Shown: piece after piece, positions 2,545-46,524 of the stretch
Position numbering within the stretch: position 1 is the first letter of the stretch
How the letters are laid out: each line of letters starts with the position of its first letter
Source: an uncultured Anaerolineales bacterium
GTDB taxonomy: Bacteria > Chloroflexota > Anaerolineae > Anaerolineales > UBA11858
Length of the DNA: 64,000 nucleotides
NCBI GenBank assembly: GCA_964453155.1
Contig: CAYVQU010000002.1
Location: 11,240-75,239, forward strand
Direction of reading: 5' to 3'
Position numbers and translations under genes: made by a program
The notes under the pieces: generated by a model
Databases searched by the model: none
The model's input: only the letters and a program-made list of their open reading frames with translations
What the model was told of the DNA's origin: nothing

Positions 2545-3974
2545 TGGCTGATCCCCACGGATTTTTACAGGTCGAACGCTCCGACAACCCTTATCGCCCC
2601 GTGGATTTGCGGGTCCGCGATTTCGCCGAAATAGAAACCCTACTCCCGGCCGCTGCACGCCAGGCGCAGGCCGCCCGTTGCATGGACTGTGGGGTCCCGT
2701 TTTGCCATTGGGGCTGCCCGGTCAGCAATCTGATCCCCGAATGGCAGGATAAACTCTACCATGGGGATTGGCGCGCTGCCTATGAATTACTCCAGCGCAC
2801 GAATAATTTCCCCGAGTTCACAGGCCGGGTGTGTCCTGCTCCCTGTGAGGGGTCCTGCGTGTTGGAAATTAACGACCAGGCTGTCACCATTCGTGCCAAC
2901 GAACTGGCCATCATCGAGCACGCTTTCGAGGCTGGATATGTGCAACCTCAGTCCCCACCCTTCCGGACCGGAAAAAAAGTGGCCGTCATCGGCAGCGGAC
3001 CCGCAGGTTTGGCCGCGGCGGACGAACTCAACCAAAGGGGGCATTCCGTGGTTTTATACGAGGCCGCGGCCGAAGTGGGAGGCTATTTGCGGTATGGGAT
3101 TCCGGATTTCAAGCTGGACAAGGCCGTCATCGACCGGCGGGTTGACATCCTGGTTCAGGAGGGAGTGGAAATTGTCACCGAGGTGAAAGTTGGGGTGGAT
3201 ATTCCTGTAGACGAACTCAAATCCCGGTTTGACGCCGTCTGCCTGGCAATTGGGGCCAGAATCCCGCGGGATTTAGCCATCCCTGGTCGAGATTTAGGGG
3301 GGATACACTTTGCCGTGGATTACCTCACCCAGCAAAACCAGGTCAACGCGGGCCTCCCCATTTCTGCCGCGGATCGATTTTTAGCCACCGGTAAAAATGT
3401 CGTCGTCATCGGGGGTGGCGATACCGGCGCTGATTGCGTCGGAACTGCTATCCGCCAGGGGGCTAAATCCGTCACCCAGTTGGAAATTATGCCCGAACCT
3501 CCGGCTGAGCGAAAAACTGACAATCCCTGGCCGTTGTGGCCGCGGACTTTGCGAACTTCGACTTCTCACCAAGAAGGGTGCGAACGGTATTTCAGCCTCG
3601 CCACTCAAAAATTCCAGGGCGAGAATGGGCAGGTCTCCAAGCTGGCAACCACCCGCGTCGACTGGCAACCCACTGCCAACGGTGGTTTTCAGATGAAAGA
3701 AATCTCAAATTCGGCCCAAGAATTCCCTGCTGAGGTGGTCCTGTTGGCGATGGGGTTTATCCAAATCGAAACGGAGGGATTGATTTCTGAGTTGGAAGTC
3801 CAACAAAATGAACGCGGCAGTCTGGCTTTGGACGAAAATATGATGACCAACCTCCCCGGCATTTTCGCGGCCGGAGATGCCCACCGCGGCCCTGCTCTGA
3901 TCGTGTGGGCCATTCAGGATGGCCGGGCGGTGGCGTCCGCTATTGATCAATATTTGCAAGATCGAAATTTCTGA
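2544..3974 (+). CDS. gltD: glutamate synthase small subunit (NADPH-dependent)
   Basis: It has N-terminal Cys clusters (CMDCGVPFC, CPAPCEGSC) and two dinucleotide-binding motifs (VAVIGSGPAGLAAA, VVVIGGGDTGADC). The ATG overlaps the gltB stop (ATGA coupling). Confidence 0.9.
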   Translation: MADPHGFLQVERSDNPYRPVDLRVRDFAEIETLLPAAARQAQAARCMDCGVPFCHWGCPVSNLIPEWQDKLYHGDWRAAYELLQRTNNFPEFTGRVCPAPCEGSCVLEINDQAVTIRANELAIIEHAFEAGYVQPQSPPFRTGKKVAVIGSGPAGLAAADELNQRGHSVVLYEAAAEVGGYLRYGIPDFKLDKAVIDRRVDILVQEGVEIVTEVKVGVDIPVDELKSRFDAVCLAIGARIPRDLAIPGRDLGGIHFAVDYLTQQNQVNAGLPISAADRFLATGKNVVVIGGGDTGADCVGTAIRQGAKSVTQLEIMPEPPAERKTDNPWPLWPRTLRTSTSHQEGCERYFSLATQKFQGENGQVSKLATTRVDWQPTANGGFQMKEISNSAQEFPAEVVLLAMGFIQIETEGLISELEVQQNERGSLALDENMMTNLPGIFAAGDAHRGPALIVWAIQDGRAVASAIDQYLQDRNF

Positions 3975-3977
3975 TTT

Positions 3978-4056
3978 GTCCAACTTATCTAACGGGTCTG
4001 AGCGGTCGGATCCGCTATACAAATTAGACCACTTAGACTTTTACGACCTTTTTGAC
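3978..4056. repeat. 9-bp-phased GTC/GAC word array forming an imperfect palindrome
   Basis: GTC or ATC occurs at 3978, 3987, 3996 and 4005. GAC occurs at 4027, 4036, 4045 and 4054, exactly 9 bp apart. The last unit (TTGACA) doubles as a -35 box. Confidence 0.7.
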
Positions 4057-4080
4057 AAATACTCTCCCCCATGCTACAAT
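4052..4080 (+). promoter_or_regulatory. sigma70-type promoter (TTGACA, 17-bp spacer, TACAAT)
   Basis: TTGACA lies at 4052-4057, the spacer is exactly 17 nt, and TACAAT lies at 4075-4080. Confidence 0.6.
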
Positions 4081-4441: not shown

Positions 4442-6079
4442 ATGAATAAAAAATTACGCATCATTCCCCTGGGTGGTCTGGGGGAAGTCGGTAAAAACAT
4501 GATGATCTACGAATACGATGATCAAATTTTGATCGTCGATACCGGGATCATGTTCCCCGACAACGATATGCTGGGGATCGACTATATCATCCCTGATTTC
4601 CAATATCTCAAAGATAACCGTGACAAAGTTGTGGGGATCGTTATTACCCACGGGCACGAAGATCATACTGGGGCCATCCGCCACGTTTTAGAAGAAATCA
4701 ATGCCCCCATCTATGCTACCCCGCTGACCCGCGGCTTAATCGAAGTGAAACTGTCGAAGGCTGGTTTACTGGGCGCGGCCGAACTGGTCACCGTCCAGGC
4801 CGGAGAAATGGTCGAAATCGGCCCCTTCGAAGTCGAATTCTTCCACGTCTGTCACTCGGTGCCCGATGCAGTTGGACTGGGGATCAACACGCCCGAAGGC
4901 TTGATCGTCCATGCCAGCGACTACAAATTTGACCCCACCCCCGTGGATGGTTGGCCCACCGATTTTGCCAAACTGGCCGAACTCTCGGGGCGCGGCGTCC
5001 TGGCTCTCTTTGCCGACTCCACCAACGCCGACAAACCCGGCTGGACCCCCTCTGAACGGGTCATTGACGGTGCGCTGGACGAAGTTTTCGCCCAGGCTCC
5101 CGGTCGAATTTTGGTAGCCTCCTTCGCCTCGCTGATCTCTCGGATGCAGCAGGTTGCCAACGCCGCTCACCGGCATGGTAAAAAATTGGCCTTTGTGGGG
5201 ATGAGCATGACGGCCAATGCTGAAATGGCTCAAAAATTAGGGTATTTGGACATCCCTGCCGGGGTAGAAGTGCCCCTGGATCAGGCCCTCAAAATGCAGG
5301 ATAGCAAAGTGGTTTTGATGTGCACCGGTTCTCAAGGCGAGCCCTCCTCAATTTTAGGTCGGCTCTCGGCCGGAACGAATCGCCGCTTTTCAGTTCAAGC
5401 CGGGGACACCATCGTGCTTTCTTCTCACCCCATTCCGGGGAATGAAGAGACCATTTACCGCACCATCAACCGCTTGTTCCGCCGCGGGGCCAATGTGATC
5501 TACGAACCGCTCTACTCGGTTCACGTTTCAGGCCACGCCAACCAAGATGAAATGCGCTTGCTGCTCCATCTGGTCAAACCCAAATACTTCATCCCCACCC
5601 ACGGTGAACTCCGCCACCTGAAACAGCACGCCCTCATCGCTGAAGATGCCGGAATCCCCTGGGAAAACATCGAAGTGATCGAAAACGGTCAAATCGTAGA
5701 GTTTTCCAACGGGATGATGCGCCTCGGCGACCGGATCCCCGGCGGCTATGTCTTCGTGGACGGGGCCCGCCCCGGCGAAGTCGGTCCCAGTGTGGTCCGC
5801 GAACGCGAAGCCCTGGCCCGGGACGGCATCGTCCTCGTCAGCCTAGCTCTAGACCAAAACGGCCGTTTACTCGACGAACCCGAGATCATCACCCGCGGCT
5901 TCATCTACAAACGCGACGCCGATGACCTCCTCAGCGAGACCATCGTCCGCATCGAAGATGTCATCGAACGCGGTAATGGCAGCATCCACGATGATGTCAA
6001 ACAAACCGTGCGCTCGTTCCTGTACAATGAAACGAAACGCCGTCCGCAGGTGTTTGTGACTTTAAGTTGGGTTAATTGA
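4442..6079 (+). CDS. rnj: ribonuclease J
   Basis: The N-terminus (LRIIPLGGLGEVGKNM), the metallo-beta-lactamase motif (THGHEDHTG), the beta-CASP region and the 545-aa length are all typical of RNase J. Confidence 0.9.
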   Translation: MNKKLRIIPLGGLGEVGKNMMIYEYDDQILIVDTGIMFPDNDMLGIDYIIPDFQYLKDNRDKVVGIVITHGHEDHTGAIRHVLEEINAPIYATPLTRGLIEVKLSKAGLLGAAELVTVQAGEMVEIGPFEVEFFHVCHSVPDAVGLGINTPEGLIVHASDYKFDPTPVDGWPTDFAKLAELSGRGVLALFADSTNADKPGWTPSERVIDGALDEVFAQAPGRILVASFASLISRMQQVANAAHRHGKKLAFVGMSMTANAEMAQKLGYLDIPAGVEVPLDQALKMQDSKVVLMCTGSQGEPSSILGRLSAGTNRRFSVQAGDTIVLSSHPIPGNEETIYRTINRLFRRGANVIYEPLYSVHVSGHANQDEMRLLLHLVKPKYFIPTHGELRHLKQHALIAEDAGIPWENIEVIENGQIVEFSNGMMRLGDRIPGGYVFVDGARPGEVGPSVVREREALARDGIVLVSLALDQNGRLLDEPEIITRGFIYKRDADDLLSETIVRIEDVIERGNGSIHDDVKQTVRSFLYNETKRRPQVFVTLSWVN

Positions 6080-9279: not shown

Positions 9280-9309
9280 GTAGGGGCGGGTTTCGAAACC
9301 CGCCCCTAC
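9280..9309. repeat. REP-like perfect palindrome GTAGGGGCGGGTTTC/GAAACCCGCCCCTAC
   Basis: It is a 30-bp perfect palindrome between convergent genes (7926-9254 + and 9314-9583 -). Confidence 0.85.
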
Positions 9310-9873: not shown

Positions 9874-9970
9874 GTAATTTCCTGACAGGGGGGCTAGTTT
9901 GTGGGTTTGTTGGTTTGTTGGTTTGTTCGTTTTTTTCCCTAACGACCCAACTATCCAACCATCAAACCAA

Positions 9971-10737: not shown

Positions 10738-11469
10738 TTAAGCTTTTATTGCCAGGGCCGCACCGATGATTCCGGCTTCGTTGAGGGTTTCGGCAGGGAC
10801 AACTTCGGCTTCGACGGTCAGGTAGTGGAAGAATTTTCTGTGTTTTTTGCTGGCACCGCCACCCAAGATGAAGAGATCGGGCCAGAAGAGGGCTTCGAGG
10901 GTGTTGAGGTAGCGGTCGAAGCGCCTGGACCATTTCTTCCAGGAGAGATCGAGACGTTTACGGGCCGCATCGGAAGCGTTCCATTCGGCGTCTTCACCGT
11001 CAATTTCGATGTGACCGAGTTCGGTGTTGGGGACGAGAACCCCATCGCTGAAGATGCAGGTCCCTAACCCAGTGCCGATGGTGACGATCATGACGACACC
11101 CATTCGCCCCTTGCCGGCCCCAAAACCCATTTCGGCGAGACCGGCCGCGTCGGCATCATTGATCATGGTAACCGGACAACCGGTGGCTTTGCCAAAAAGT
11201 TTTGCCGCGTTGGTGCCGATCCAGCTATCATCAATGTTGGCCGCGGTGCGAGCCACCCCTTGCTGCACTGGGGCCGGGAACCCACAGCCAATGGGGCCCG
11301 TCCATTCGAAATGGTTGGCAATTTCGCCAACCACGGCGGCCATATCCGCGGGTTTAGCTCCTTCGGGGGTCGGAATTCGGTAACGCGGGGCTAATAATTC
11401 ACCTTTGATGGTGTCAACGGGGGCGCCCTTGATGCCGCTGCCGCCAACGTCAATGCCGAGAATGTTCAT
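10738..11469 (-). CDS. ppgK: polyphosphate glucokinase (ROK family)
   Basis: [31 protein letters not shown] and ELGHIEIDG match the ROK/PPGK pattern. The length is 243 aa. Confidence 0.8.
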
Positions 11470-11554
11470 GGGAAACTCCTAGGGATGAGATATCCCCATT
11501 ATACCTAAGAGATTTTGTTGATACGTGAAGCGTGATGAGTGAAATGTGAGATTC

Positions 11555-11563
11555 TGCTATAAT
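11555..11563 (+). promoter_or_regulatory. extended -10 promoter element (TGcTATAAT)
   Basis: TGCTATAAT lies at 11555-11563, about 10 nt before the left end of the IS200-like element. Confidence 0.45.
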
Positions 11564-11573
11564 CAAATCGCTC

Positions 11574-14714: not shown

Positions 14715-15896
14715 CTAATAATATTCGTGTAAATAGGGCAATTTCTGGGGGAACATGGTCCGCAGGACTGCTTGTATCTCGAGAGATGGATCACCCCATC
14801 CCAAGAAGCAGAAATCTCCCGGATCGTTGGTACCATAAATTAGAGCGGATAAGCCTTGAATAGTGAGGGTGCAGTCGGCACTGGGGGCTGGGGAGACCTC
14901 CAGGGTACCGGAATCTCCCCTAAATTTCCAGATGCAGTTGTTCCAAGGGCAATCCGAGTCCACGATTTGGGCTGAGAACGTGCCGGGTTCGCACGGCATC
15001 CCATTTAATCCCTTAACATCCAAAACCCGGCCCATGGGGGCCACAAAGACGGGCTCCAACTCAGGACGGAGATCAGCCAGCCAGGTGCCAGGGCGCTCGT
15101 AGGCCGGGAGCCACATTTCGACTCGGTTAGCTTGATCGACGTGGCGGGCGATCCAATCGAGCATGAGATATTTGGCCGCGCTGGTCCGATAATAAAATCG
15201 AGGCGCTCGAAGTGTAAACCGCATAATCTCACCGCCGGTGAGTGAATAGACCATCAGCCCCACCAACTCGCCATCCACAATGGCTTTCAAGACCCAGCTC
15301 CGGTTACTCTGCGCACCTTCCTTTTGCGACTCTTCGAAATTGGCCATACCATGAATGCCGGGCTGCATGGCGAGAACATAATCGCGGTACTCATCGTAAA
15401 CATCGCCTACCAGCGCCAGTTCGCATTCTCCGGGGAGATCCATTTTGAAAATTGGCTGCAAATCCTGGGGATCGAAAATAGCCTGTCGAGTTTGGGGGAA
15501 AGTCACGTAGCCGAGGCGCTCGTAAAATGAGCCCCGGAATGGGTAGAGGCTGGAGACTACCCGGCCTTCGTTGACCTGTTGCTCATAGGCGTGGCGCATG
15601 AGTTGGCGCACGTAGCCCTTGCGACGAGCTTTGGGGTGGGTGGCGATACTCGCAAAGCCCCCCATCCTGAGGATTACCCCGCGCACATTCTGCGTGAGGG
15701 TCGGGCAGCCAACGACCGCGACGGCTTCAACGCCTTCAAATAGGGCGTAATAAGTCGGCCCTTTGCGCGTTTTCAGCCGCGTTTCCCACTCGGCTTTATC
15801 CGAGAAGGGTGGGTTGGCCGTATAGGCGTAGTTATCGAGCCAGTAGGTGATATCGAGAAGTTCTTGATCTTGGATTTGGCGGATGGTGGTGGACAT
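14715..15896 (-). CDS. Eis-like GNAT N-acetyltransferase with C-terminal SCP2-like domain
   Basis: It has GNAT motif A (HPKARRKGYVRQLM) and an Eis-family layout of about 390 aa. I chose the ATG at 15896 (MSTTIRQ) because the TTG-initiated extension to 15956 is encoded by a word-repeat spacer. Confidence 0.7.
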   Translation of the reverse strand: MSTTIRQIQDQELLDITYWLDNYAYTANPPFSDKAEWETRLKTRKGPTYYALFEGVEAVAVVGCPTLTQNVRGVILRMGGFASIATHPKARRKGYVRQLMRHAYEQQVNEGRVVSSLYPFRGSFYERLGYVTFPQTRQAIFDPQDLQPIFKMDLPGECELALVGDVYDEYRDYVLAMQPGIHGMANFEESQKEGAQSNRSWVLKAIVDGELVGLMVYSLTGGEIMRFTLRAPRFYYRTSAAKYLMLDWIARHVDQANRVEMWLPAYERPGTWLADLRPELEPVFVAPMGRVLDVKGLNGMPCEPGTFSAQIVDSDCPWNNCIWKFRGDSGTLEVSPAPSADCTLTIQGLSALIYGTNDPGDFCFLGWGDPSLEIQAVLRTMFPQKLPYLHEYY

Positions 15897-16019
15897 GGCA
15901 GTTGGTTTGTTAGTTGGATGGTTGGTGAAAAATTTTGAGCTGTCTGATTGGTTCAAAGAGTCTTACTGGTCGGACATTTCAAACCAATCAGACCTTTTGG
16001 AACCTTTTGACCAATTGGA

Positions 16020-16613
16020 CTACTTCCGTTGGCGGTAAAGATCAGGATCAACCACCGCTTGCATTTGCTCGATATCCAACTCTCCACCCAAAAATTCGTT
16101 GATTTTATGGACGTAGGGAGTGGGGTCAGCGAGCATAGCATTGTAATCGACATCGATATATTGTAGGTTGGATTGGCTGTCCATCCAGGCCTTGACTTGC
16201 TTGACATGCTTGGCAAACAGGTCGGCCATGGTGGCGTCGTCGACTTTAGAATCTTCACCGCGATTTGCGAGCATCTTGGCCTGGGAGGCTAATACTTCTT
16301 CGATTTTGCGGCGCATGAAGAGGACGCGGTACTCATAGTTATTGGGGAGGGAGGTTAGCAGCGCGCCGATCACTTTGACGGCTTTGCCTTCAGCATCGGG
16401 AAGCCAGGCGACATCGCCTTCTTTGAGCTTTTTGGCGCGCTCGAATTCATAATAACCCTTGGGGTTGTCGCTATCCGCGGTGCGGATATGGTCGGTGAGA
16501 GGGGGAATTCCACCCGCTTCGAGCATCGTCATCGTCATCGAGGTCCCCGAGCGCGGCAGTCCCGAGACGATGGTGATGGGTGTTTTTTTCTTGCGTTTGA
16601 ATAGTTTTAGCAT
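16020..16613 (-). CDS. sulfotransferase family protein
   Basis: It has the PAPS-binding 5'-PSB-like loop SGLPRSGTSMT. The length is 197 aa. Confidence 0.65.
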   Translation of the reverse strand: MLKLFKRKKKTPITIVSGLPRSGTSMTMTMLEAGGIPPLTDHIRTADSDNPKGYYEFERAKKLKEGDVAWLPDAEGKAVKVIGALLTSLPNNYEYRVLFMRRKIEEVLASQAKMLANRGEDSKVDDATMADLFAKHVKQVKAWMDSQSNLQYIDVDYNAMLADPTPYVHKINEFLGGELDIEQMQAVVDPDLYRQRK

Positions 16614-21628: not shown

Positions 21629-22432
21629 TTAAATTTCAGTAATTTCGGGGACGGTCAGCAGGTGAAAGGCCAGGGTAGACATCCAGGGGGCTTTGCGGAG
21701 TTTGCCGCCGGGCTGATTGGAGGTGGCCCGTTGGGTGATGGCCCGACAGTGTTCGAGCACGGCCTCGTCGGTGAAATACATATCCAGGGGCACCTCACCG
21801 GTCAAAATTTCACGCACGCCCAGTTTGCGATAAATGGTGCTGATAATTTCTGAGACCCACCCGGCACCCAAGACCAATTCATCCGCAATATCCCGAATGG
21901 CCAGATTGAAGATGATCCCCAGACGGATAAGTTCGTTTTCACGCCGGGAGAATTTAGTCGTCAGACGACGACCATCGAGGATCAAGGTGCCAGTCGGGAA
22001 GGCATACCGGCCTGCCGATTTATGGATCCCCGGAGAAATGACGCAAGTGTCATTATAGACAGCCGCGACGACAGCACCCAGGGCATATAAGATATCCTGT
22101 TTCAGGACATAGCCACTGCACTGCGAGTGAATAATTTCATCTAAAACTTCTCTTTTTGCCAACGTACCGGTATACAGAATTTTTGGAGGGTGCGGCATCT
22201 GCTGAGTTAGGGCTGCCAGCTTGAGGGGGAGTCCCGGTTCCCCTGGAATCTCGGTATCAATAATGACCACATCGACCGTTTGCAGTTCATCGGTGAGAAA
22301 CAGCTCTAACTCTTTCTCACCATAAACTTCACCAACCACCCGGGTTCGCCAATCACGAGTCAACAGCAGCGACATGAGATCGCGGGCGTAGGGGTCGTCT
22401 TCGATAATCAGTACACGGATGTCTTTGGCCAT
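21629..22432 (-). CDS. response regulator, REC domain plus LuxR-type HTH
   Basis: The REC domain shows VLIIEDDPYARD and VVIIDTEIPG. The HTH region shows RENELIRL...IRDIADELVLGAGWVSEIISTIYRKLGV. No histidine kinase gene is adjacent. Confidence 0.75.
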   Translation of the reverse strand: MAKDIRVLIIEDDPYARDLMSLLLTRDWRTRVVGEVYGEKELELFLTDELQTVDVVIIDTEIPGEPGLPLKLAALTQQMPHPPKILYTGTLAKREVLDEIIHSQCSGYVLKQDILYALGAVVAAVYNDTCVISPGIHKSAGRYAFPTGTLILDGRRLTTKFSRRENELIRLGIIFNLAIRDIADELVLGAGWVSEIISTIYRKLGVREILTGEVPLDMYFTDEAVLEHCRAITQRATSNQPGGKLRKAPWMSTLAFHLLTVPEITEI

Positions 22433-22446
22433 GGGGTTTTCCTTGG

Positions 22447-22479
22447 GTCTAAATGGTCGGAAAGGTCTAAGTTGTCGAG
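22447..22479. repeat. 9-bp-phased GTC word array directly upstream of the response-regulator start
   Basis: GTC occurs at 22447, 22456, 22465 and 22474 (GTCTAAATG GTCGGAAAG GTCTAAGTT GTCGAG). Confidence 0.65.
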
Positions 22480-23050: not shown

Positions 23051-23080
23051 TGTAGGGACCCAATATATTGGGTCCCTACA
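23051..23080. repeat. REP-like palindrome variant TGTAGGGACCCAATAT/ATATTGGGTCCCTACA
   Basis: It is a 30-bp perfect palindrome. Its right arm supplies the last Leu codon and the TAG stop of the DtxR-family gene. Confidence 0.8.
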
Positions 23081-27966: not shown

Positions 27967-28045
27967 GTCTAAATCGTCCAAGATATCTGATAGGTCTAAC
28001 TGGTCATTGGCTTTGACATTTTCGACAAATTTGACCTATCAGATA
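27967..28045. repeat. 9-bp-phased GTC/GAC palindromic array upstream of the DtxR-FeoA gene
   Basis: GTC or ATC occurs at 27967, 27976, 27985, 27994 and 28003. GAC or GAT occurs at 28015, 28024, 28033 and 28042. The array includes a perfect 13-bp inverted repeat: TATCTGATAGGTC (27984-27996) and GACCTATCAGATA (28033-28045). Confidence 0.75.
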
Positions 28046-33237: not shown

Positions 33238-34179
33238 TTATCTTTTCGCAGCCTGATTGACCTCGATGGTAATATGCGCCAGCCCCAAATCAGTAGGGAG
33301 AAGTTGTTTATATTCATCCGGTGACCGCAGGTTTTCGGCCAGTAGTGAAATAATAACGCTGTTCATTTTCGGCCCAATCGACCAAAGATGTAAGTCCGTG
33401 ACCTGAGCGCCGCTGGCTTCCAAAGCCGTCTGTATTCGCTGGCGAAGAGTAGCCGAACCCTGCTTATCTAGCAGGACAGCGCTGGTGGTGCGGATCAGCC
33501 CCAGGGACCACTTCGACACCCAAAATGCGCCGACCAACCCCATCAGGGGATCCATCCAACTCAGGCCGAGAAATTTTCCGCCCAAGAGAGCGAAAATCGC
33601 CAGTAGGGAAGTCAGGGCATCGGCCAAAACGTGCAGATACGCGGCCCGCAAGTTATGATCGTGATGCTCGTGTTCGTGGTCATGGTCGTCATGCTGGTGA
33701 TCATGGTCGTGTTCGTGATCGTGGTTGTCTCCCAAAATTAACACCGAAACCCCGTTGACGATCAGTCCCAACACGGCGACAAAAATGGCCTGATTGAATG
33801 CGATCTCCACCGGGTTGAGCAGCCGGTCGACGCTCTCCCAGGCCATCATTAGGGCAAAGATGGCCAGCAAAACAGCCCCCGTAAAACCACCCAGGGCATT
33901 GACTTTACCGGTCCCAAAGCTAAAGGTGTGGTTATGGGCCTGCCGCCGGGCGTAGACATAGGCAAAGACGTTGATGGTCAGAGCCGCGGCATGAGAGGCC
34001 ATATGCATCCCATCGGCCAGCAGTGCGATCGAGCCAAAGAGTACACCGGTGGCAATTTCAACCACCATCATGGTGGCGGTGATAATAATAACGATTAAGG
34101 TGCGCAGCTCCCCGGTCCGCTTTTCATCCTGACCGAAGGCATGACTGTGTTGCCATTGTTTGAGATTTGTATTTTGCAT
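33238..34179 (-). CDS. cation diffusion facilitator (CDF) metal efflux transporter with His/Asp-rich loop
   Basis: It has six TM segments, the CDF signature region (LLADGMHMASHAAAL) and the loop DNHDHEHDHDHQHDDHDHEHEHHDHN. Confidence 0.85.
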   Translation of the reverse strand: MQNTNLKQWQHSHAFGQDEKRTGELRTLIVIIITATMMVVEIATGVLFGSIALLADGMHMASHAAALTINVFAYVYARRQAHNHTFSFGTGKVNALGGFTGAVLLAIFALMMAWESVDRLLNPVEIAFNQAIFVAVLGLIVNGVSVLILGDNHDHEHDHDHQHDDHDHEHEHHDHNLRAAYLHVLADALTSLLAIFALLGGKFLGLSWMDPLMGLVGAFWVSKWSLGLIRTTSAVLLDKQGSATLRQRIQTALEASGAQVTDLHLWSIGPKMNSVIISLLAENLRSPDEYKQLLPTDLGLAHITIEVNQAAKR

Positions 34180-34554: not shown

Positions 34555-34580
34555 GTAGGGGCGCAATCGTGCGCCCCTAC
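34555..34580. repeat. REP-like hairpin GTAGGGGCGCA-ATCG-TGCGCCCCTAC
   Basis: It has an 11-bp stem and a 4-nt loop, and sits between feoB and the feoC-like gene. Confidence 0.8.
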
Positions 34581-38062: not shown

Positions 38063-38169
38063 GTACGCGGATTATTTGTAGCTCTCTCCAATAACCACAG
38101 AGCACACTGAGTTCGCGGAGTTTTTTATATGTCTCTGCGTTCTCCGCGCACTCTGCGGTGAAAAGTTTC

Positions 38170-40554: not shown

Positions 40555-40685
40555 TGCTTGCTCCTCTCTGCTGAAATTGGGTTGATTCTATCAAAAGATG
40601 GTGAAATTGGCTGATGATCCGACAATGGTGTCATCTAGACGATTGATCTAGATTATGGCATAATCCCCCCAACTTATTCGAGAAA

Positions 40686-41013
40686 AGCGATGATGGAAAC
40701 GAGTAGACTGGCCGGCGCCCCGTGGTGCCATGATTTGATAGAGAACCCAGGGTAGCTGGAAACTGGGACAGATCGGCGAGTTGAAAATCCTTCCGGAGCT
40801 GTGACCTGAAAGCGCAATCATTTTGATTACGGATTAGTAGGGAAAACGGAATTGTTCACCGTTAGCAGAACACAAGCTTGAATTGGTTATCAGTTGCAAA
40901 CTGACATACACCGAGAGAGCTTGACCAAGTGCCCGATAAACGTCGGGAATTCCGGGTGGTACCGCGGGAGAAGCATTAGCGACCTCGTCCCAGAGTGGAT
41001 GAGGCGTTTTTTG
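40686..41013 (+). promoter_or_regulatory. T-box riboswitch leader, probable Ile (AUC) specifier, with intrinsic terminator
   Basis: Stem I base and K-turn: AGC-GAUGAU-GGAA pairs with UUCC-GGA-GCU. Other Stem I elements are GAGUA, an AGAGA bulge and a distal loop. AUC lies at 40787-40789 in the 3' side of the specifier loop. The F-box CCGUUA is at about 40859 and Stem III is CCCGA...UCGGG. The T-box sequence is GGGUGGUACCGCG (40953-40965). The terminator is CCUCGUCC...GGAUGAGG followed by a U-run (40983-41013). Confidence 0.8.
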
Positions 41014-41020
41014 TTTAAAG

Positions 41021-41116
41021 GTCGCAGATGTCCAAAAGGTCTGAATCGTCTAAAATGTCGACTACTCAGACAAATTAGACCAACTAGACGCTTTAGACAT
41101 CTCAGACCATTGAGAC
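41021..41116. repeat. 9-bp-phased GTC/GAC palindromic array (5 + 7 units) centred on GTCGAC
   Basis: GTC occurs at 41021, 41030, 41039, 41048 and 41057. GAC occurs at 41060, 41069, 41078, 41087, 41096, 41105 and 41114. The arms are about three-quarters complementary. The array ends 8 nt before the ATG at 41124. Confidence 0.8.
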
Positions 41117-41123
41117 AAATATT

Positions 41124-41585
41124 ATGGCTACCAAAGATGAATTAATTGCCTGGCTGGAAGAATCACACGCCAAAATGGAGGCCGTAGTCGCCCAGGTAGA
41201 TTGTGACACCGAAATCTATCCGGGCTGGACGATACGCGAAGTGCTGGCCCATCTGACCGGCTGGGACGACGCCGTCCTGACCTCGCTCAAGTCGCACGCC
41301 GCGGGCGGCATCCCCGTCGTCGTAGCCCAACACGGACCCGACGCTTACAACGCCGCCACCGTTACCGAACGCGAGACTTTGAGCTACGACCACATTTACC
41401 GGGAATGGCAGACCACCCACGAGCAGCTCAAGATCGCCATTCGTGATCTGTCCCCGGATAAGATGAACGAACAAATCGTTTTCCCCTGGGGACAGGCCGG
41501 TAATGTCGAAGATTTGGTCATAGGGCTCACAACCGAACACGAAGTGAGTCATGCGAAAGATATTGAAAACTTACTGACAAAATAA
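41124..41585 (+). CDS. DinB/ClbS-like four-helix-bundle protein
   Basis: It is 153 aa. WTIREVLAHLTGWDDAV and a C-terminal HEVSH match the DinB-superfamily His pattern. Confidence 0.55.
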   Translation: MATKDELIAWLEESHAKMEAVVAQVDCDTEIYPGWTIREVLAHLTGWDDAVLTSLKSHAAGGIPVVVAQHGPDAYNAATVTERETLSYDHIYREWQTTHEQLKIAIRDLSPDKMNEQIVFPWGQAGNVEDLVIGLTTEHEVSHAKDIENLLTK

Positions 41586-41779
41586 AAATTGGTACCCGGA
41601 TTTAATGGATATAACGGATTTTTCAACCGCGAATAACGCTAAGCTTCACGAATATAAAAATTAGCGTCAATTCGCGTGACACCTGCACTTGTCACCGCAG
41701 GTGCAAGTGTTAGCGGTTTTATATCCGCAAAATCTGCGTTAGCGAAGCGACATCCGCGTACAAAAAGATGGAGAACACA

Positions 41780-44700
41780 ATGGCATTCAAACAAGTACCC
41801 AACAAAGTCGACTTTGTCGACCAAGAACACGAAGTTTTGGCGTTCTGGAAAGATACCGACGCCTTTGAAAAATCCCGCGCCCTGCGGAAGGACAAACCGA
41901 CTTGGTCCTTCATCGACGGCCCGATCACGGCCAACAACCCGATGGGCGTCCATCACGGCTGGGGTCGGACCTATAAGGATCTCTACAACCGCTTCTGGAC
42001 CATGACGGGCCGCGAGCTCCGCTACCAGAATGGCTTTGACTGCCAGGGTTTGTGGGTCGAAGTCGAAGTTGAGAAAGAAAAAGGCTTCAAATCCAAGATG
42101 GATATTGAAGAATACGGCCTCGACGAATTCGTCAAGGAATGTAAAGCCCGCGTGCTGCGCTACGCGGGGGTCCAGACCCACCAATCGATGCGTCTCGGCT
42201 ACTGGATGGAGTGGAACGACCCCGAGAAACTCAATATGCTGGCTGACAAATTGCTCGAAGATCCGCTGCAAGAGATCACCTTCACCGGGCCGAATGGCAA
42301 AACCGTCACCGACACCGTCGAACAGGTCGTCGGCCAACTCGGTTTGGCCCAACTGGGTGGCAGCTACTTCACCTTCTCCAATGAAAACAACTTCATGATC
42401 TGGAAAATGATCAAGAAGAGTTGGGAGAACGGCTGGCTCTACCGCGGCGCCGACGTCATGCCCTGGTGCCCGCGCTGCGCCACCGGGATCAGCCAGCACG
42501 AGATCGTCACTGACGGGTATATGGAGCTGACGCACCGCTCCGTGACGCTGCGATTCCCCCTGCGAGACAAACCGGGTGAATCCCTCCTCGTCTGGACCAC
42601 CACCCCCTGGACCCTGACATCCAACGTCGCCGCAGCCGTCGGCCCCGAACTGGATTACGTCAAGGTCAAAAACAATGGGCACATCTTATATATGTCCAAA
42701 GGTACCCTCCACATGCTGAAGGGCGACTATGAAGTCCTGGCTGAACTCAAAGGTGCCGAGATGGAAGGCTGGACCTACGATGGTCCCTTCGATGATTTGC
42801 CCGCGGCCAACACTCCCGGCGGTGTGACCTATCTCGACGAGTTGATCGAAGGGATCACCGCCACTGCCGTGACCTCCCACCAGGTCATCCTGTGGGACGA
42901 AGTTGGCGAGGCCGAAGGTACCGGCATCGTCCACATCGCACCCGGTTGTGGGGCCGAGGACTTTGAACTCGGCAAAGAGCATAATTTCCCGTTGATCGCC
43001 CCCATCGAGGATGAAGGTGCCTTCATCGACGGCTTCGGCTGGCTGACTGGAATGCATGTCTCGGAAGTTGCTGATCCCATCTTCGAAGATCTGAAGAAAA
43101 AGGGCGTGCTCTACGTCGTCGAGCCCTACACCCACCGCTACCCGACCTGCTGGCGCTGCAAGACCGAATTGGTTTTCCGCCTGGTCGATGAGTGGTTCAT
43201 CAGCATGGGCCAATTGCACGACAAACCGCGTGAGCAGGTCACCGCGGCCGAGAAACAAGAATCCCTGCGCTACCAGATCATGGACGTGGTCGATCAAATC
43301 CGTTGGATTCCCGAATTTGGCCACAAACGCGAACTCGATTGGCTCCGCAACATGCACGACTGGATGATCTCCAAGAAACGCTATTGGGGCCTGGCCCTGC
43401 CAATCTGGGTCTGTGATGAGTGTGGCCACTACCACGTCATCGGCGACGATCACGAACTCGAAGAGCGCGCCGTTGAAGGCTGGGACGAATTCGCCGGTCA
43501 CACACCCCACCGCCCCTTCATCGACGCCATCAAGATCGTCTGCGACAAATGCGAATCCAAAATGAGCCGTATCCCCGATGTCGGCAACCCCTGGCTCGAT
43601 GCCGGGATCGTCAGCTTCAGCACCCTCGGTTACCGCGATGACCCCGAATTCTGGCAAAAATGGTATCCAGCCGACTGGATCAGCGAATCCTTCCCCGGCC
43701 AGTTCCGCAACTGGTTCTACAGCATGCTCACCATGGGCACCGTCCTCGATGGCTCGCCCTCCTTCCTGGAAAACTTCGGTTACGCTAGCCTGCACGCCGA
43801 GGACGGCCGCGAGATGCACAAATCGTGGGGCAACTCCATCGAATTCAATGAAGCTGCCGACAAAATGGGCGTCGACACCATGCGCTGGCTGTACTGTGCC
43901 CACAAACCCGAGAACAACCTGCTCTTCGGCTACAACCGGGCCGAAGAAACCCGCCGCCGGTTCATTATTCCTTTGTGGAATGTGTACTCATTCTTCTCCA
44001 CATATGCGAGTTTAGATGGGTGGGTTCCGACGGTTGAGAACTTTGAACCTGGCACCCCCGAGGGTCCCACGCCCCAGAGTGATAACCCGTTGGACGCGTG
44101 GATTTTGGCCCGCCTGAACCAGGTGGTGGCCCGCGTCACCGATAATTTCACCAACTCCGACGCTTATACCGCCACCCTGGCTTTCGAGGCCCTGATGGAC
44201 GATTTGAGCAACTGGTTCGTCCGCCGCTCCCGCCGCCGCTTCTGGAAGTCCGAGCAGGATAACGACAAGAACACGGCCTACGCCACCCTGTGGCACGTCC
44301 TGGTCAAGATGGGCCGGGCGCTGGCCCCCGTGATCCCCTTTATCACCGAAGTCATGTACCAAAATCTGGTCCGCGGGGTGTTTGACGAAGCCTATGAAAG
44401 CGTCCACCACACTGACTGGCCTGAGATCGACGAAGCCGCCATCGACGAAAAACTCGTCTACCAGATGGGACTGGCCCGCCGGGTCGCCAGCCTGGGCCTC
44501 AGCGCTCGCGGCAACGCTGGCTTGAAAGTGCGCCAACCGCTGGCCAAAGTTTTGGCCCACGTTTCTGAAGGCGAAGCCGAACTCAACCAGGAACTGGTCG
44601 ATATCGTCGCCGACGAACTCAACGTCAAGGCCCTCCAATTTGTCGAGGATGCTGGCGACTTGGTCAGCTACAAAGTTTTGCCGGTCAACAAAGTCCTCGG

Positions 44701-45217
44701 CCCCCGTTTCGGCAAGGATTTCCCCAAAGTCCGTGCCGCCCTGGCAGCCCTGGACCCCGCCGAAGTTGCTGAAACTGTTGCAGCCGGTAAACCGGTCACC
44801 TTCGAAGTGGCCGGTGAAACCATCGAGTTGGCCCCCGACGAAGTCCTGGTCAACACTGAGTCGGCCGAAGGCATGGCCGTCGCCGCCGACAAAATCGTCA
44901 CCGTCGCCATCGACACCGTCCTGACCCCCGAACTGAAAGCCGAAGGACTGGCCCGCGAACTCGTCCGCCGCATCCAGGCCCAGCGCAAAGACGCCGATTT
45001 TAATATCGAAGACCGCATCACCACCTGGTATCAGGCTGAAGATGACCCTTCGACAGGCTTAGGACAGGGACTGGCCGAAGTTTTTGCGACCTTCGCCGAC
45101 TACATCCAAGCTGAAACCCTGACGACAAAACTCGTCGCCGGGGAACCGCCCGCAGAGGCCTACACCGAAACCCACAAAGTCGAAGGCCAGGAGGTCACCA
45201 TCGGCGTGAAGAATTAA
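41780..45217 (+). CDS. ileS: isoleucine--tRNA ligase
   Basis: It has a class I HIGH-type motif (NNPMGVHHGWGR), an editing-domain insert, a Zn-type Cys cluster (CDECGHYH...CDKCES), a KMSKS-position variant (MHKSWGNS) and an anticodon-binding region. I preferred the ATG at 41780 (GGAG 6 nt upstream) over the one at 41768. Confidence 0.92.
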   Translation: MAFKQVPNKVDFVDQEHEVLAFWKDTDAFEKSRALRKDKPTWSFIDGPITANNPMGVHHGWGRTYKDLYNRFWTMTGRELRYQNGFDCQGLWVEVEVEKEKGFKSKMDIEEYGLDEFVKECKARVLRYAGVQTHQSMRLGYWMEWNDPEKLNMLADKLLEDPLQEITFTGPNGKTVTDTVEQVVGQLGLAQLGGSYFTFSNENNFMIWKMIKKSWENGWLYRGADVMPWCPRCATGISQHEIVTDGYMELTHRSVTLRFPLRDKPGESLLVWTTTPWTLTSNVAAAVGPELDYVKVKNNGHILYMSKGTLHMLKGDYEVLAELKGAEMEGWTYDGPFDDLPAANTPGGVTYLDELIEGITATAVTSHQVILWDEVGEAEGTGIVHIAPGCGAEDFELGKEHNFPLIAPIEDEGAFIDGFGWLTGMHVSEVADPIFEDLKKKGVLYVVEPYTHRYPTCWRCKTELVFRLVDEWFISMGQLHDKPREQVTAAEKQESLRYQIMDVVDQIRWIPEFGHKRELDWLRNMHDWMISKKRYWGLALPIWVCDECGHYHVIGDDHELEERAVEGWDEFAGHTPHRPFIDAIKIVCDKCESKMSRIPDVGNPWLDAGIVSFSTLGYRDDPEFWQKWYPADWISESFPGQFRNWFYSMLTMGTVLDGSPSFLENFGYASLHAEDGREMHKSWGNSIEFNEAADKMGVDTMRWLYCAHKPENNLLFGYNRAEETRRRFIIPLWNVYSFFSTYASLDGWVPTVENFEPGTPEGPTPQSDNPLDAWILARLNQVVARVTDNFTNSDAYTATLAFEALMDDLSNWFVRRSRRRFWKSEQDNDKNTAYATLWHVLVKMGRALAPVIPFITEVMYQNLVRGVFDEAYESVHHTDWPEIDEAAIDEKLVYQMGLARRVASLGLSARGNAGLKVRQPLAKVLAHVSEGEAELNQELVDIVADELNVKALQFVEDAGDLVSYKVLPVNKVLGPRFGKDFPKVRAALAALDPAEVAETVAAGKPVTFEVAGETIELAPDEVLVNTESAEGMAVAADKIVTVAIDTVLTPELKAEGLARELVRRIQAQRKDADFNIEDRITTWYQAEDDPSTGLGQGLAEVFATFADYIQAETLTTKLVAGEPPAEAYTETHKVEGQEVTIGVKN

Positions 45218-45225
45218 TCTACGAC

Positions 45226-45253
45226 GTAGGGGCGCAATATATTGCGCCCCTAC
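45226..45253. repeat. REP palindrome GTAGGGGCGCAATAT/ATATTGCGCCCCTAC
   Basis: It is a 28-bp perfect palindrome between the ileS stop and the RAYT RBS. Confidence 0.9.
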
Positions 45254-45271: not shown

Positions 45272-45823
45272 ATGACCAGGGGACGAAAACCAAAATACGA
45301 TCCACAAAAACACCAGCGTAAATCCATTCGGTTGCGGGGCTATGACTACACCCAAGCAGGCGCGTATTTCGTGACCATTTGCACTTATCAGCGGGAATGT
45401 TTGTTCGGTGAAATTATGAACGAGGAAATGGTCTTAAACGAATTGGGTGTTATTGCAAATGAATGTTGGCGCGCCCTTCCTGAACATTTCCCTCGCGTAG
45501 AATTGGGGGCGTTTGTGGTTATGCCTAATCATGTGCATGGGATTGTTATCATTACCGAATCCAAGGTAGGGGCGCAGCATGCTGCGCCCCTACGACAGCA
45601 ATCAATAAACGTGAAACCCGGATCACTAGGCGCAATTGTGCGTTCATTCAAAGCCGCCGCCACTCGCCGCATTGGACGCGAACAAGGCATATCAGGCATT
45701 TGGCAGCGCAATTATTACGAACACATCATTCGCAACGAGGTCGGCCTGCACCGCATTACTGCTTACATCGAAGCTAACCATGCAAATTGGGAAACAGATA
45801 GTGAAAACCCTAAAAATATTTGA
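45272..45823 (+). CDS. REP-associated tyrosine transposase (RAYT, IS200-like Y1 HUH family)
   Basis: It has the HUH motif (PNHVHGIVII) and the catalytic region WQRNYYEHIIRNE...ITAYIEAN. A GGGAGG RBS lies before the ATG at 45272. REP palindromes lie upstream, inside and downstream. Confidence 0.85.
   Translation: MTRGRKPKYDPQKHQRKSIRLRGYDYTQAGAYFVTICTYQRECLFGEIMNEEMVLNELGVIANECWRALPEHFPRVELGAFVVMPNHVHGIVIITESKVGAQHAAPLRQQSINVKPGSLGAIVRSFKAAATRRIGREQGISGIWQRNYYEHIIRNEVGLHRITAYIEANHANWETDSENPKNI
45566..45593. repeat. REP palindrome variant GTAGGGGCGCAGCAT/ATGCTGCGCCCCTAC inside the RAYT CDS
   Basis: It is a 28-bp perfect palindrome, in frame, encoding VGAQHAAPL between the HUH and Tyr motifs. 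Confidence 0.85.
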
Positions 45824-45862: not shown

Positions 45863-46498
45863 ATGCGCATTTTAGCCCTTTGCGACGACATCTGGCATCC
45901 GGCGCAAGTTGTTCAAGACGGGTTGTTAGGTCTAGAAAAACACGGTTTTGAATTCGACTTCATAACTAACGCGCGGGAATGGTCTTCCGAGCGAATGGCC
46001 GAATATCCGCTGGTGATTTTGGCAAAGGCGAATAATATCTCAGCCGCTGATGAAACGCCCTGGATGATACCCGAAGTGGCGCAGGTTTTTCAGGAGTATG
46101 TCCAGACCGGGAATGGGTTGTTGGCAATCCATTCGGGGACGGCGGGATATGCGGATACACTGGTTTTACGGAGGGTGTTGGGTGGTGTGTTTCGAGAGCA
46201 TCCGGAGCAGTGTGAGGTGACAATAAAATCCGTCGTAGGGGCGCAATATATTGCGCCCCTACCATCTAACGAATTCTCCATTATGGATGAACATTATTTC
46301 ATGGAATTGGATGATGATCAGGCCACAGTGTTTATGACAACCACGTCCGAACATGGGACCCAACCGGGGGGTTGGACGCGGATGGAGGGGGATGGAAGGG
46401 TGTGTGTGTTGACACCAGGGCATAATTTGGCGGTATGGGAGCAGCCGGTGTATCAGGATTTGATTGAGCAGGCAATAAATTGGGCTGGTAATTTGTAG
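45863..46498 (+). CDS. ThuA-like (class I glutamine amidotransferase-like fold) protein
   Basis: It is 211 aa with a ThuA-type layout (MRILAL.DD.WHP...LLAIHSG...HPE...TPGHN). It contains an in-frame REP palindrome. Confidence 0.6.
   Translation: MRILALCDDIWHPAQVVQDGLLGLEKHGFEFDFITNAREWSSERMAEYPLVILAKANNISAADETPWMIPEVAQVFQEYVQTGNGLLAIHSGTAGYADTLVLRRVLGGVFREHPEQCEVTIKSVVGAQYIAPLPSNEFSIMDEHYFMELDDDQATVFMTTTSEHGTQPGGWTRMEGDGRVCVLTPGHNLAVWEQPVYQDLIEQAINWAGNL
46235..46262. repeat. REP palindrome identical to 45226-45253, inside the ThuA-like CDS
   Basis: It is a 28-bp perfect palindrome, in frame, encoding VGAQYIAPL. Confidence 0.9.
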
Positions 46499-46524
46499 GG
46501 GCAGGTTTGAAACCTGCCCCTACA
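46494..46524. repeat. REP palindrome variant TGTAGGGGCAGGTTT-G-AAACCTGCCCCTACA
   Basis: It overlaps the ThuA-like stop codon (TAG in GTAGGGG) and ends 12 nt before the next gene. Confidence 0.85.

Follow-up and report, generated by a model that had tools for sequence, protein, structure and literature searches.

A polar 9-bp repeat family of marine Anaerolineae and its largest local array, between a T-box terminator and the DinB-like and ileS genes

The DNA analyzed here, referred to as the window, is a 64,000-nucleotide stretch (positions 11,240 to 75,239 of contig CAYVQU010000002.1, assembly GCA_964453155.1) from an uncultured Anaerolineales bacterium. Between the terminator of a T-box leader and the start codon of a gene for a DinB-like protein, which is followed by the isoleucyl-tRNA synthetase gene ileS, it carries an array of 9-bp units in which first GTC and then GAC recur at a strict interval. 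This array is the largest of at least five local copies of a scattered 9-bp family (hereafter GAC-9) that occurs in marine Anaerolineae and in some phage-like contigs, the family having been mapped in 64 kb of the source genome and in short pieces of others. What is conserved is the lattice of motifs and not the hairpin that the two arms could form. By analogy with known iterated operators, we tentatively read the array as a polar iteron lattice that would dock a putative cooperatively binding factor, probably on double-stranded DNA, and we give this reading somewhat less than an even chance. The array itself consists of the following parts.

41012 to 41059, plus strand: left arm, five GTC units and a degenerate unit at 41012, which read as GAC units on the minus strand
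41057 to 41062, unstranded: dyad center GTCGAC
41060 to 41122, plus strand: right arm, seven GAC units, namely GACTACTCA, GACAAATTA, GACCAACTA, GACGCTTTA, GACATCTCA, GACCATTGA and GACAAATAT

An exact recount places GTC at 41021, 41030, 41039, 41048 and 41057 and GAC at 41060, 41069, 41078, 41087, 41096, 41105 and 41114, all steps being 9 nt, with AGAC repeated six times consecutively from 41068. The last GAC ends at 41116 and the ATG lies at 41124; a span of 110 bp separates the T-box terminator from the start codon. A preliminary description of this DNA had reported five GTC and seven GAC units with an exact 9-bp period, centered on GTCGAC and located between the T-box terminator and the next start codon, and each of these points holds. 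The array contains the longest periodic 3-mer and 4-mer runs of the whole window, and nothing comparable to it arises by shuffling: in 20,000 shuffles of 41012-41123, the longest period-9 run of any 3-mer is 4 (8 cases), against 7 observed. Because the units are strongly diverged, Tandem Repeats Finder detects just 2.4 copies in the array, and a gap-free palindrome scan of the window misses it while recovering palindromes of the repetitive extragenic palindromic (REP) type. The source of the array is a marine metagenomic Chloroflexota/Anaerolineae population, and its sequence is identical in nine contigs that derive from different samples.

The GTC/GAC trinucleotide by which the unit had been described is correct but incomplete, since the unit is a 9-mer with a further conserved position, T7. 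A profile of 40 units, drawn from the window, two arrays of locus L018 and the viral contig L195 (L numbers denote the loci compared), yields frequencies of.94 for G1,.96 for A2,.94 for C3,.78 for Y4,.82 for A5,.87 for T7 and.68 for A9. The unit can be written G1 A2 C3 N W N T7 N N, frequently with an A in front that completes AGAC. Restricted to 33 newly found units, which are independent in that they were not used in building the matrix, the profile gives G.94, A 1.0, C.91 and T7.94, with the other positions variable. In the scan with the resulting position-specific scoring matrix, the right arm is recovered with 7 units and 60.9 bits (0 arrays in 10 shuffles) and the left arm as GAC on the minus strand, with 5 units at 41015-41059 and 39.7 bits. 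The matrix also detects four further arrays in the window and none in ten shuffles; all five window arrays are intergenic, in a window of which 13.6% is intergenic. The four additional arrays are listed below.

3972 to 4062, unstranded: second array, palindromic, 4+4 units, the last GAC lying inside the TTGACA of a near-consensus promoter
15936 to 16026, unstranded: third array, palindromic and partly degenerate, flanked by two minus-strand genes
22450 to 22476, minus strand: fourth array, single-arm, with GAC units on the sense strand, upstream of AAGGAAA and of a response-regulator start codon (ATG at 22432)
27970 to 28041, unstranded: fifth array, palindromic, in the 5′ leader of a minus-strand DtxR/FeoA-type gene, the last sense GAC 17 nt upstream of the ATG

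The promoter at the second array has the form TTGACA-17-TACAAT with a TG (4052-4080); this TTGACA-17-TGcTACAAT element is followed by a leader of about 360 nt, which has no Rfam match, and by the RNase J gene (4442-6079). Near the fifth array, a minus-strand promoter occupies 28123-28095. Beyond the window, the unit is present in both L018 arrays, one of which is a 7-unit single arm placed directly upstream of the ileS ribosome-binding site with no complementary arm, while in L013 a GAC-9 array extends Stem II of the T-box. L136 contains a 16-unit single arm of a sub-variant, GACYTRTTN, with T rather than A at position 5, which ends about 12-20 bp upstream of an extended -10 element. Among viral contigs, L195 carries 6 GTC and 7 GAC units between the capsid gene and the next gene, and some of its 9-mers, such as GACTACTCA and GACCATTGA, are identical to those of the window; L298, with two arrays flanking its tail-tube gene, and L321 carry a sub-variant of the unit. 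Pattern scans of viral collections return hundreds of matches, nearly all of which stem from 9-nt tandem repeats in coding sequence (collagen-like GTCCGACNN) or, in GC-rich phages, from coincidences of codon phase; true analogues in non-coding DNA are confined to L195, L298 (two arrays) and L321. A search of viral contigs with the L298 tail-tube protein gave no relatives beyond the contig itself.

The arrays obey a common geometry. Every arm keeps its phase throughout, including across units with a mutated core. All 10 palindromic arrays use the same one of the two possible inverted arrangements, in which GAC points away from the dyad on either strand, and in 7 of these 10 (the phage sub-variant included) the cores lie 0-1 nt apart, as GTCGAC or GTC-N-GAC. 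The single-arm arrays keep the same consensus, and all three read GAC in the same sense as the downstream gene. Overall, the gene-proximal arm is GAC-sense in 13/13 arrays, an inverted arm is present in 10/13, and in 8/11 the last GAC lies 7-17 nt upstream of a start codon, abutting the Shine-Dalgarno sequence.

The preliminary description had emphasized a long hairpin with arms about three-quarters complementary. A long imperfect hairpin is indeed predicted for the read-through transcript, with a free energy of -36.3 kcal/mol and a z-score of -4.9, and the stated complementarity is too high for the dyad itself: about the GTCGAC center, 23 Watson-Crick and 3 G-T pairs form out of 39 (59% and 67%). 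RNAfold instead selects a register shifted by one unit, in which the first GAC unit becomes the loop and 32 + 3 of 48 positions pair (67% and 73%). The hairpin is, however, not what is conserved. Complementarity between spacers in register barely exceeds that out of register, and non-core positions share only about 44% identity between units. Of the seven GAC units, two lack a GTC counterpart but still have an intact GAC core. T7 would be an isolated pair if the hairpin formed, yet it is conserved like the core, and in most arrays the cores are separated by 0-1 nt, so that there is no room for a loop. The antisense fold of the window array is more stable than the sense fold (-42.0 against -36.3 kcal/mol), and across the 10 palindromic arrays the sense RNA is never the more stable of the two and is clearly weaker in six.

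Comparison with orthologous leaders, in 10 of which T-boxes were detected, defines the relationship of the array to the T-box. The segment between terminator and start codon differs among them as follows.

L016, L070, L071, L072, L073, L150/151, L152 and L153: U-run, then Shine-Dalgarno sequence and start codon within 20-30 nt
L120: spacer of about 60 nt between terminator and start codon, with no periodicity
L010 (87% identical protein) and L011: unrelated, non-periodic hairpins between terminator and start codon
L013: palindrome with an 8-nt period between terminator and start codon
L015: TGAC/GTCA palindrome with a 7-nt period between terminator and start codon
L018 (68% identical protein): 9-nt GTC/GAC palindrome of the window type, with no T-box within the 890 nt available upstream

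Eight leaders thus run straight from the U-run to the ribosome-binding site, three have a non-periodic spacer only, and two carry different periodic palindromes. The array lies outside the T-box, whose Rfam match stops at 40995 and whose terminator ends at about 41016. Since the array is absent from most orthologous leaders of T-box/DinB-like/ileS loci, it is not part of the T-box mechanism. The slot between terminator and start codon has a rapid turnover, the T-box can function without the array, and the array is an insertion or expansion.

The interpretation as an iteron lattice is favored because position-specific conservation, an exact lattice and the use of both orientations match precedents of protein-bound double-stranded DNA. 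The omega protein of pSM19035 binds 7-bp heptads, both direct and inverted, and MetJ recognizes the metbox AGACGTCT. The ParB protein of pCXC100, of the ribbon-helix-helix type, binds nine unspaced 9-bp repeats cooperatively with a 9-bp footprint periodicity (PMC3074162), and KfrA of RA3 binds five 9-nt repeats, three direct and two inverted (PMC7783346). All of these sites resemble the window array in being short and unspaced and in keeping an exact period other than the helical repeat. Like iterated operators, the window array combines direct and inverted repeats of fixed period and conserves only some unit positions, and two of the precedents share its 9-bp period. The precedents are single plasmid loci beside the gene of their binder, whereas at least five arrays occur here in 64 kb of chromosome, with more in other genomes and in phage-like contigs; unlike the precedents, GAC-9 also has many arrays inside transcribed leaders against the ribosome-binding site.

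Under such a mechanism, an oligomerizing protein would read each unit and bind cooperatively, side by side, along the lattice. The bound filament would affect RNA polymerase arriving by T-box read-through, either as a roadblock or as a second checkpoint, or it could alternatively act on local DNA structure. On read-through, the array is also transcribed, and its RNA can form a hairpin with mismatches in which the weak ribosome-binding site lies on the 3′ arm; this would be a secondary effect. Extending this view, it is conceivable, though we think it doubtful, that marine Anaerolineae and the phages that presumably infect them share a genome-wide system in which an oligomerizing factor reads GAC-N3-T-N2 lattices and paralogous factors serve the 7- and 8-nt palindromes. 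Lattices upstream of ribosome-binding sites or promoters may in that case add control, or nucleoid or mRNA organization, on top of T-box-type devices.

Several observations weigh against a protein-bound lattice. No binding protein was identified and no regulator gene is consistently adjacent, no systematic search for a candidate binder having been made. No function unites the downstream genes (DinB-like/ileS, RNase J, DtxR/FeoA-type, response regulator, GNAT), the array is dispensable at most orthologous loci, and several arrays lie inside operons or in 5′ leaders against the Shine-Dalgarno sequence, a placement more natural for an RNA-level element. In addition, these genomes contain palindromes of other units, including 8-nt GTT/AAC, 9-nt GAG/CTC, 7-nt CAGT/ACTG and 7-nt TGAC/GTCA; the protein model would need a separate binder for each, while general repeat expansion would explain all at once.

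The main alternative, possible if rather doubtful, is that the array works at the mRNA level, as a long mismatched GUC/GAC hairpin ending at the ribosome-binding site or as a single-stranded GAC arm serving as enhancer, standby site or protein platform. Such an element would adjust how translation of the DinB-like/ileS message starts, how the message is processed (RNase III being one example) or how stable it is. Consistent with this are the predicted hairpin, the invariable placement of an A/C-rich GAC sense strand in the gene-proximal arm and the position of the last GAC at the Shine-Dalgarno sequence in most arrays. Arrays also occupy operon-internal spacers of phage structural genes (around the tail-tube gene and after the capsid gene), and arrays of GAC-9 and related kinds extend hairpins of T-box leaders with the T-box match preserved. 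The binding sites of TRAP (11 GAG/UAG) and HutP (UAG repeats), which have periods of 5-7 nt, variable spacers and no complementary arm, offer an RNA-level parallel. Like them, GAC-9 repeats a conserved trinucleotide on the sense strand of a leader near expression signals, whereas its triplets are separated by exactly 6 nt rather than by 2-4 variable nucleotides, the 9-nt period is strict, conservation extends to T7 and most arrays include an inverted arm. Intergenic hairpins formed by the short tandemly repeated repetitive (STRR) elements of cyanobacteria have likewise been suggested to influence the stability of transcripts or translational coupling (PMC2670836). An RNA-level function nevertheless fits poorly with several features of the arrays: compensatory changes between the arms are absent, unpaired units are as well conserved as paired ones, T7 is about 90% conserved although it would form an isolated pair, the antisense fold is at least as stable as the sense fold in 10/10 arrays, and a dyad with 0-1 nt between its arms provides no loop. 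Nor is a strict phase expected of flexible single-stranded RNA, and two arrays end at or before the -35 region of a promoter, outside its transcript.

The preliminary description had found no repeat class to which the array could belong. Its architecture, however, matches the pCXC100 ParB iterons, the KfrA repeats and STRR, the last of which reportedly also occur inside the gene for RNase P RNA, according to the title of a 1997 paper by Vioque. STRR are 7-bp tandem repeats that form hairpins between genes such as hupS and hupL (PMC2670836). Like GAC-9, they consist of short head-to-tail units (here 5 + 7 units at 9 nt), are dispersed over intergenic regions (here as five arrays), form intergenic hairpins and comprise several unit families per genome; their presence in a structured RNA gene, where they reportedly lengthen a helix (P12), parallels that of GAC-9 and related arrays inside T-box stems. 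They differ in having 7-bp, near-identical units and in being found in heterocystous cyanobacteria, whereas GAC-9 is a polar, palindromic 9-nt repeat of Chloroflexota (Anaerolineae) whose units have diverged except at G1A2C3/T7, to about 44% identity outside the core. Searches of the literature on inverted tandem repeats, on repeats in Anaerolineae and on T-box, ileS and Chloroflexi found nothing specific.

The array may be no functional element at all but selfish or functionless repeat DNA, an Anaerolineae counterpart of STRR that arises by slippage expansion and by hairpin-templated switching to the other arm, an explanation we regard as unlikely. As filler, it would occupy free intergenic space up to a stop codon, promoter or Shine-Dalgarno sequence, and its abutment on functional signals would be the default outcome. 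A scan of about 600 kb (the window and non-redundant Anaerolineae loci) for a fixed-period 3-mer run followed by its reverse-complement run finds 15 cases against 0-1 in block shuffles, so that periodic palindromes of many units and of periods of 7, 8 and 9 nt are enriched; L133, L076 and L118 also contain them. The slot that holds the array in the window is filled by an 8-nt palindrome in L013, by a 7-nt palindrome in L015 and by nothing periodic in eleven other lineages, and the genes downstream of the arrays show no functional theme. The CAGT..ACTG hairpin in the variable region of the T-box is a single unit in the window and comprises 4+4 seven-nt units in L152, with similar expansions in L150 and L013, which indicates that hairpins in these lineages grow by periodic units. 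Neutral decay, on the other hand, cannot account for a conservation of about 90-100% at G1A2C3/T7 next to a pairwise identity of about 44% elsewhere in the unit, and expansion would neither prevent every indel nor fix one inverted arrangement in 10 of 10 cases. The identity of the array in nine contigs from different samples shows that it is not hypervariable, and BLAST gives no similar copies that would indicate recent spread.

The other periodic elements of these genomes take several forms. In the window, an 8-nt-period palindrome (GTTTGTTG five times, then AAC four times) occupies 9897-9967 in the 5′ region of a gene that starts at 9874 on the minus strand, and a related single-arm GTTGG/CCAAC tract (15885-15915) lies directly upstream of a minus-strand ATG at 15896 that has no obvious Shine-Dalgarno sequence. 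Just past the stop codon of the GH94 gene, 38100-38153 forms a 9-nt-period GAG/CTC palindrome (GAGCACACT GAGTTCGCG GAG ... CTC), and similar GAGNNCACN units occur in L118 and L076. Four 7-nt units (NGTGANN) at 11519-11565 end a few bases upstream of the extended -10 element TGCTATAAT, and this layout of an array followed by TGnTAnAAT recurs at 4027-4080 of the window and in L136. A 7-nt-period palindrome of four GAC and four GTC units lies within the ileS reading frame of L011 (4353-4402), and a period-27 tandem repeat of the window (33655-33725, also periodic at 18 and 6), rich in GTG/ATC/GTC (ATGGTCGTGATGCTGGTGATCATGGTC), is probably coding. The T-box leader of L013 (2406-2883) is swollen to 478 nt by three hairpin insertions, comprising GAC-9 in Stem II, a long unrelated hairpin and a 7-nt CAGT/ACTG array; its Rfam match scores 66.8 bits, and the T-boxes of the whole clade fall below the Rfam gathering score.

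Like GAC-9, REP elements and bacterial interspersed mosaic elements (BIME), enterobacterial repetitive intergenic consensus (ERIC) sequences and Neisseria Correia elements occur in intergenic DNA, frequently between genes of the same direction, are transcribed together with them and can form hairpins that could affect mRNA processing or stability. They are near-identical copies without internal periodicity, whereas GAC-9 arrays do not align with one another and are defined by their 9-nt lattice. That the array arose when a miniature inverted-repeat transposable element (MITE) or a mobile palindrome of the REP type inserted downstream of the T-box terminator is very improbable, although the array is an imperfect palindrome at an intergenic site that is empty in relatives and a REP-like GTAGGG..CCCTAC family is present in the window: a blastn-short search with the array, run on the window and on all loci, recovers only the array itself, no two arrays align, BLAST finds no match in phage or plasmid collections, no target-site duplication flanks the array, conserved termini are absent, the unit number differs in every copy and single-arm versions exist. 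The REP-like family consists of perfect palindromes GTAGGG(G)..(C)CCCTAC at 9280-9309, 23052-23079, 34555-34580, 45226-45253, 45566-45593, 46235-46262 and 46495-46523, four of them clustered just downstream of ileS; their GTAG/CTAC heads are similar to those of the REP elements that RAYT transposases mobilize.

We give hardly any credence to an internal promoter for DinB-like/ileS or a coding repeat, for although 41094-41123 matches TAGACA-18-AATATT at 9/12 positions and one frame is open across the array (an 83-aa open reading frame at 40894-41145, with Arg-x-x through the right arm), transcription would start past the conserved ATG, such sites are no more frequent than in shuffles (2 against 1.6), the reading frame begins inside the T-box, and sister arrays have 7- or 8-nt periods or stop codons. 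Clustered regularly interspaced short palindromic repeats (CRISPR) had been dismissed in the preliminary description, correctly so: the units are 9 nt long and contiguous, without spacers and with inverted arms, as opposed to repeats of about 21-48 bp with unique spacers. Nor is the array an intrinsic terminator, as the scan reports only the T-box terminator at 40983-41004 and the array is followed by AAATATTATG. The primase of phage T7 reads GTC. Primase triplets, Type I/III restriction sites (EcoP1I AGACC), rut sites and repeated target-site duplications were also considered, and none of them explains position T7, the polarity and the exact period together.

The array is framed by a conserved leader and gene pair, the components of which in the window are as follows.

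40681 to 40995, plus strand: T-box leader, the upstream neighbor of the array (Rfam RF00230, 78 bits, E 3.8e-17, full-length model match)
40983 to 41016, plus strand: T-box terminator hairpin and U-run TTTTTTGTTT, a terminator-like site at 40983-41004 followed by CGTTTTTTGT
41112 to 41126, plus strand: weak ribosome-binding site, a GAG (41112-41114) within the last full unit, and start codon of the DinB-like gene, the ATG at 41124
41124 to 41585, plus strand: DinB/MDMPI_N-like protein of 153 aa, the first gene past the array (Pfam PF11716, PF12867, PF08020)
41768 to 45217, plus strand: type-2 isoleucyl-tRNA synthetase (IleRS) of 1149 aa (Pfam tRNA-synt_1, Anticodon_1, DUF5915)

The T-box scores below the Rfam gathering threshold (78 against 93 bits), at which the window has no Rfam match; at E <= 1 the T-box is the only one. 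Judged from the alignment and the downstream ileS, its specifier is probably Ile (AUC), in the region GAAAAUCC, and ileS is the gene ultimately controlled by the T-box. The GAG at 41112-41114 probably acts as the Shine-Dalgarno sequence; orthologues have GGAG/AGGA 7-10 nt upstream of the conserved ATGGCTAC start. The annotated neighbors of the array, a GH94 enzyme, the DinB-like protein and IleRS, include no DNA-binding protein. Among the 100 homologues found for the DinB-like protein, the pairing with ileS is kept in all those with at least 58% identity, while paralogues below about 55% identity show no ileS linkage. The 153-aa DinB/MDMPI_N-like gene lies between an Ile T-box and a type-2 ileS in at least 12 Anaerolineae lineages (window 41124-45217; L010-L018, L070-L074, L150-L153), and this conserved position suggests that it is functionally linked to IleRS. 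In two lineages (L014/L015 and L074), an additional open reading frame of about 200 aa, with no Pfam match and probably encoding a membrane protein, separates the T-box from the DinB-like gene. The spacer between the DinB-like gene and ileS in the window (41586-41767) is dense in other small palindromes, for example CGCGAATAACGCTAA..TTAGCGTCAATTCGCG and CACCTGCACTTGTCACCGCAGGTGCAAGTG, and contains CGGATATAA repeats.

If the arrays are repeat expansions, they show that hairpins in leaders grow by periodic units, even inside riboswitches, and why Rfam models under-score bloated T-boxes. If a factor does read the lattices, GAC-9 would represent a chromosome-wide iteron system in a poorly studied phylum, placed where transcription hands over to translation and common to phage-like contigs. 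It would also provide a concrete handle on short tandem intergenic repeats such as STRR, unexplained since about 1990, in the form of a defined 9-mer, a polarity rule and natural pairs of ileS leaders with and without the array.

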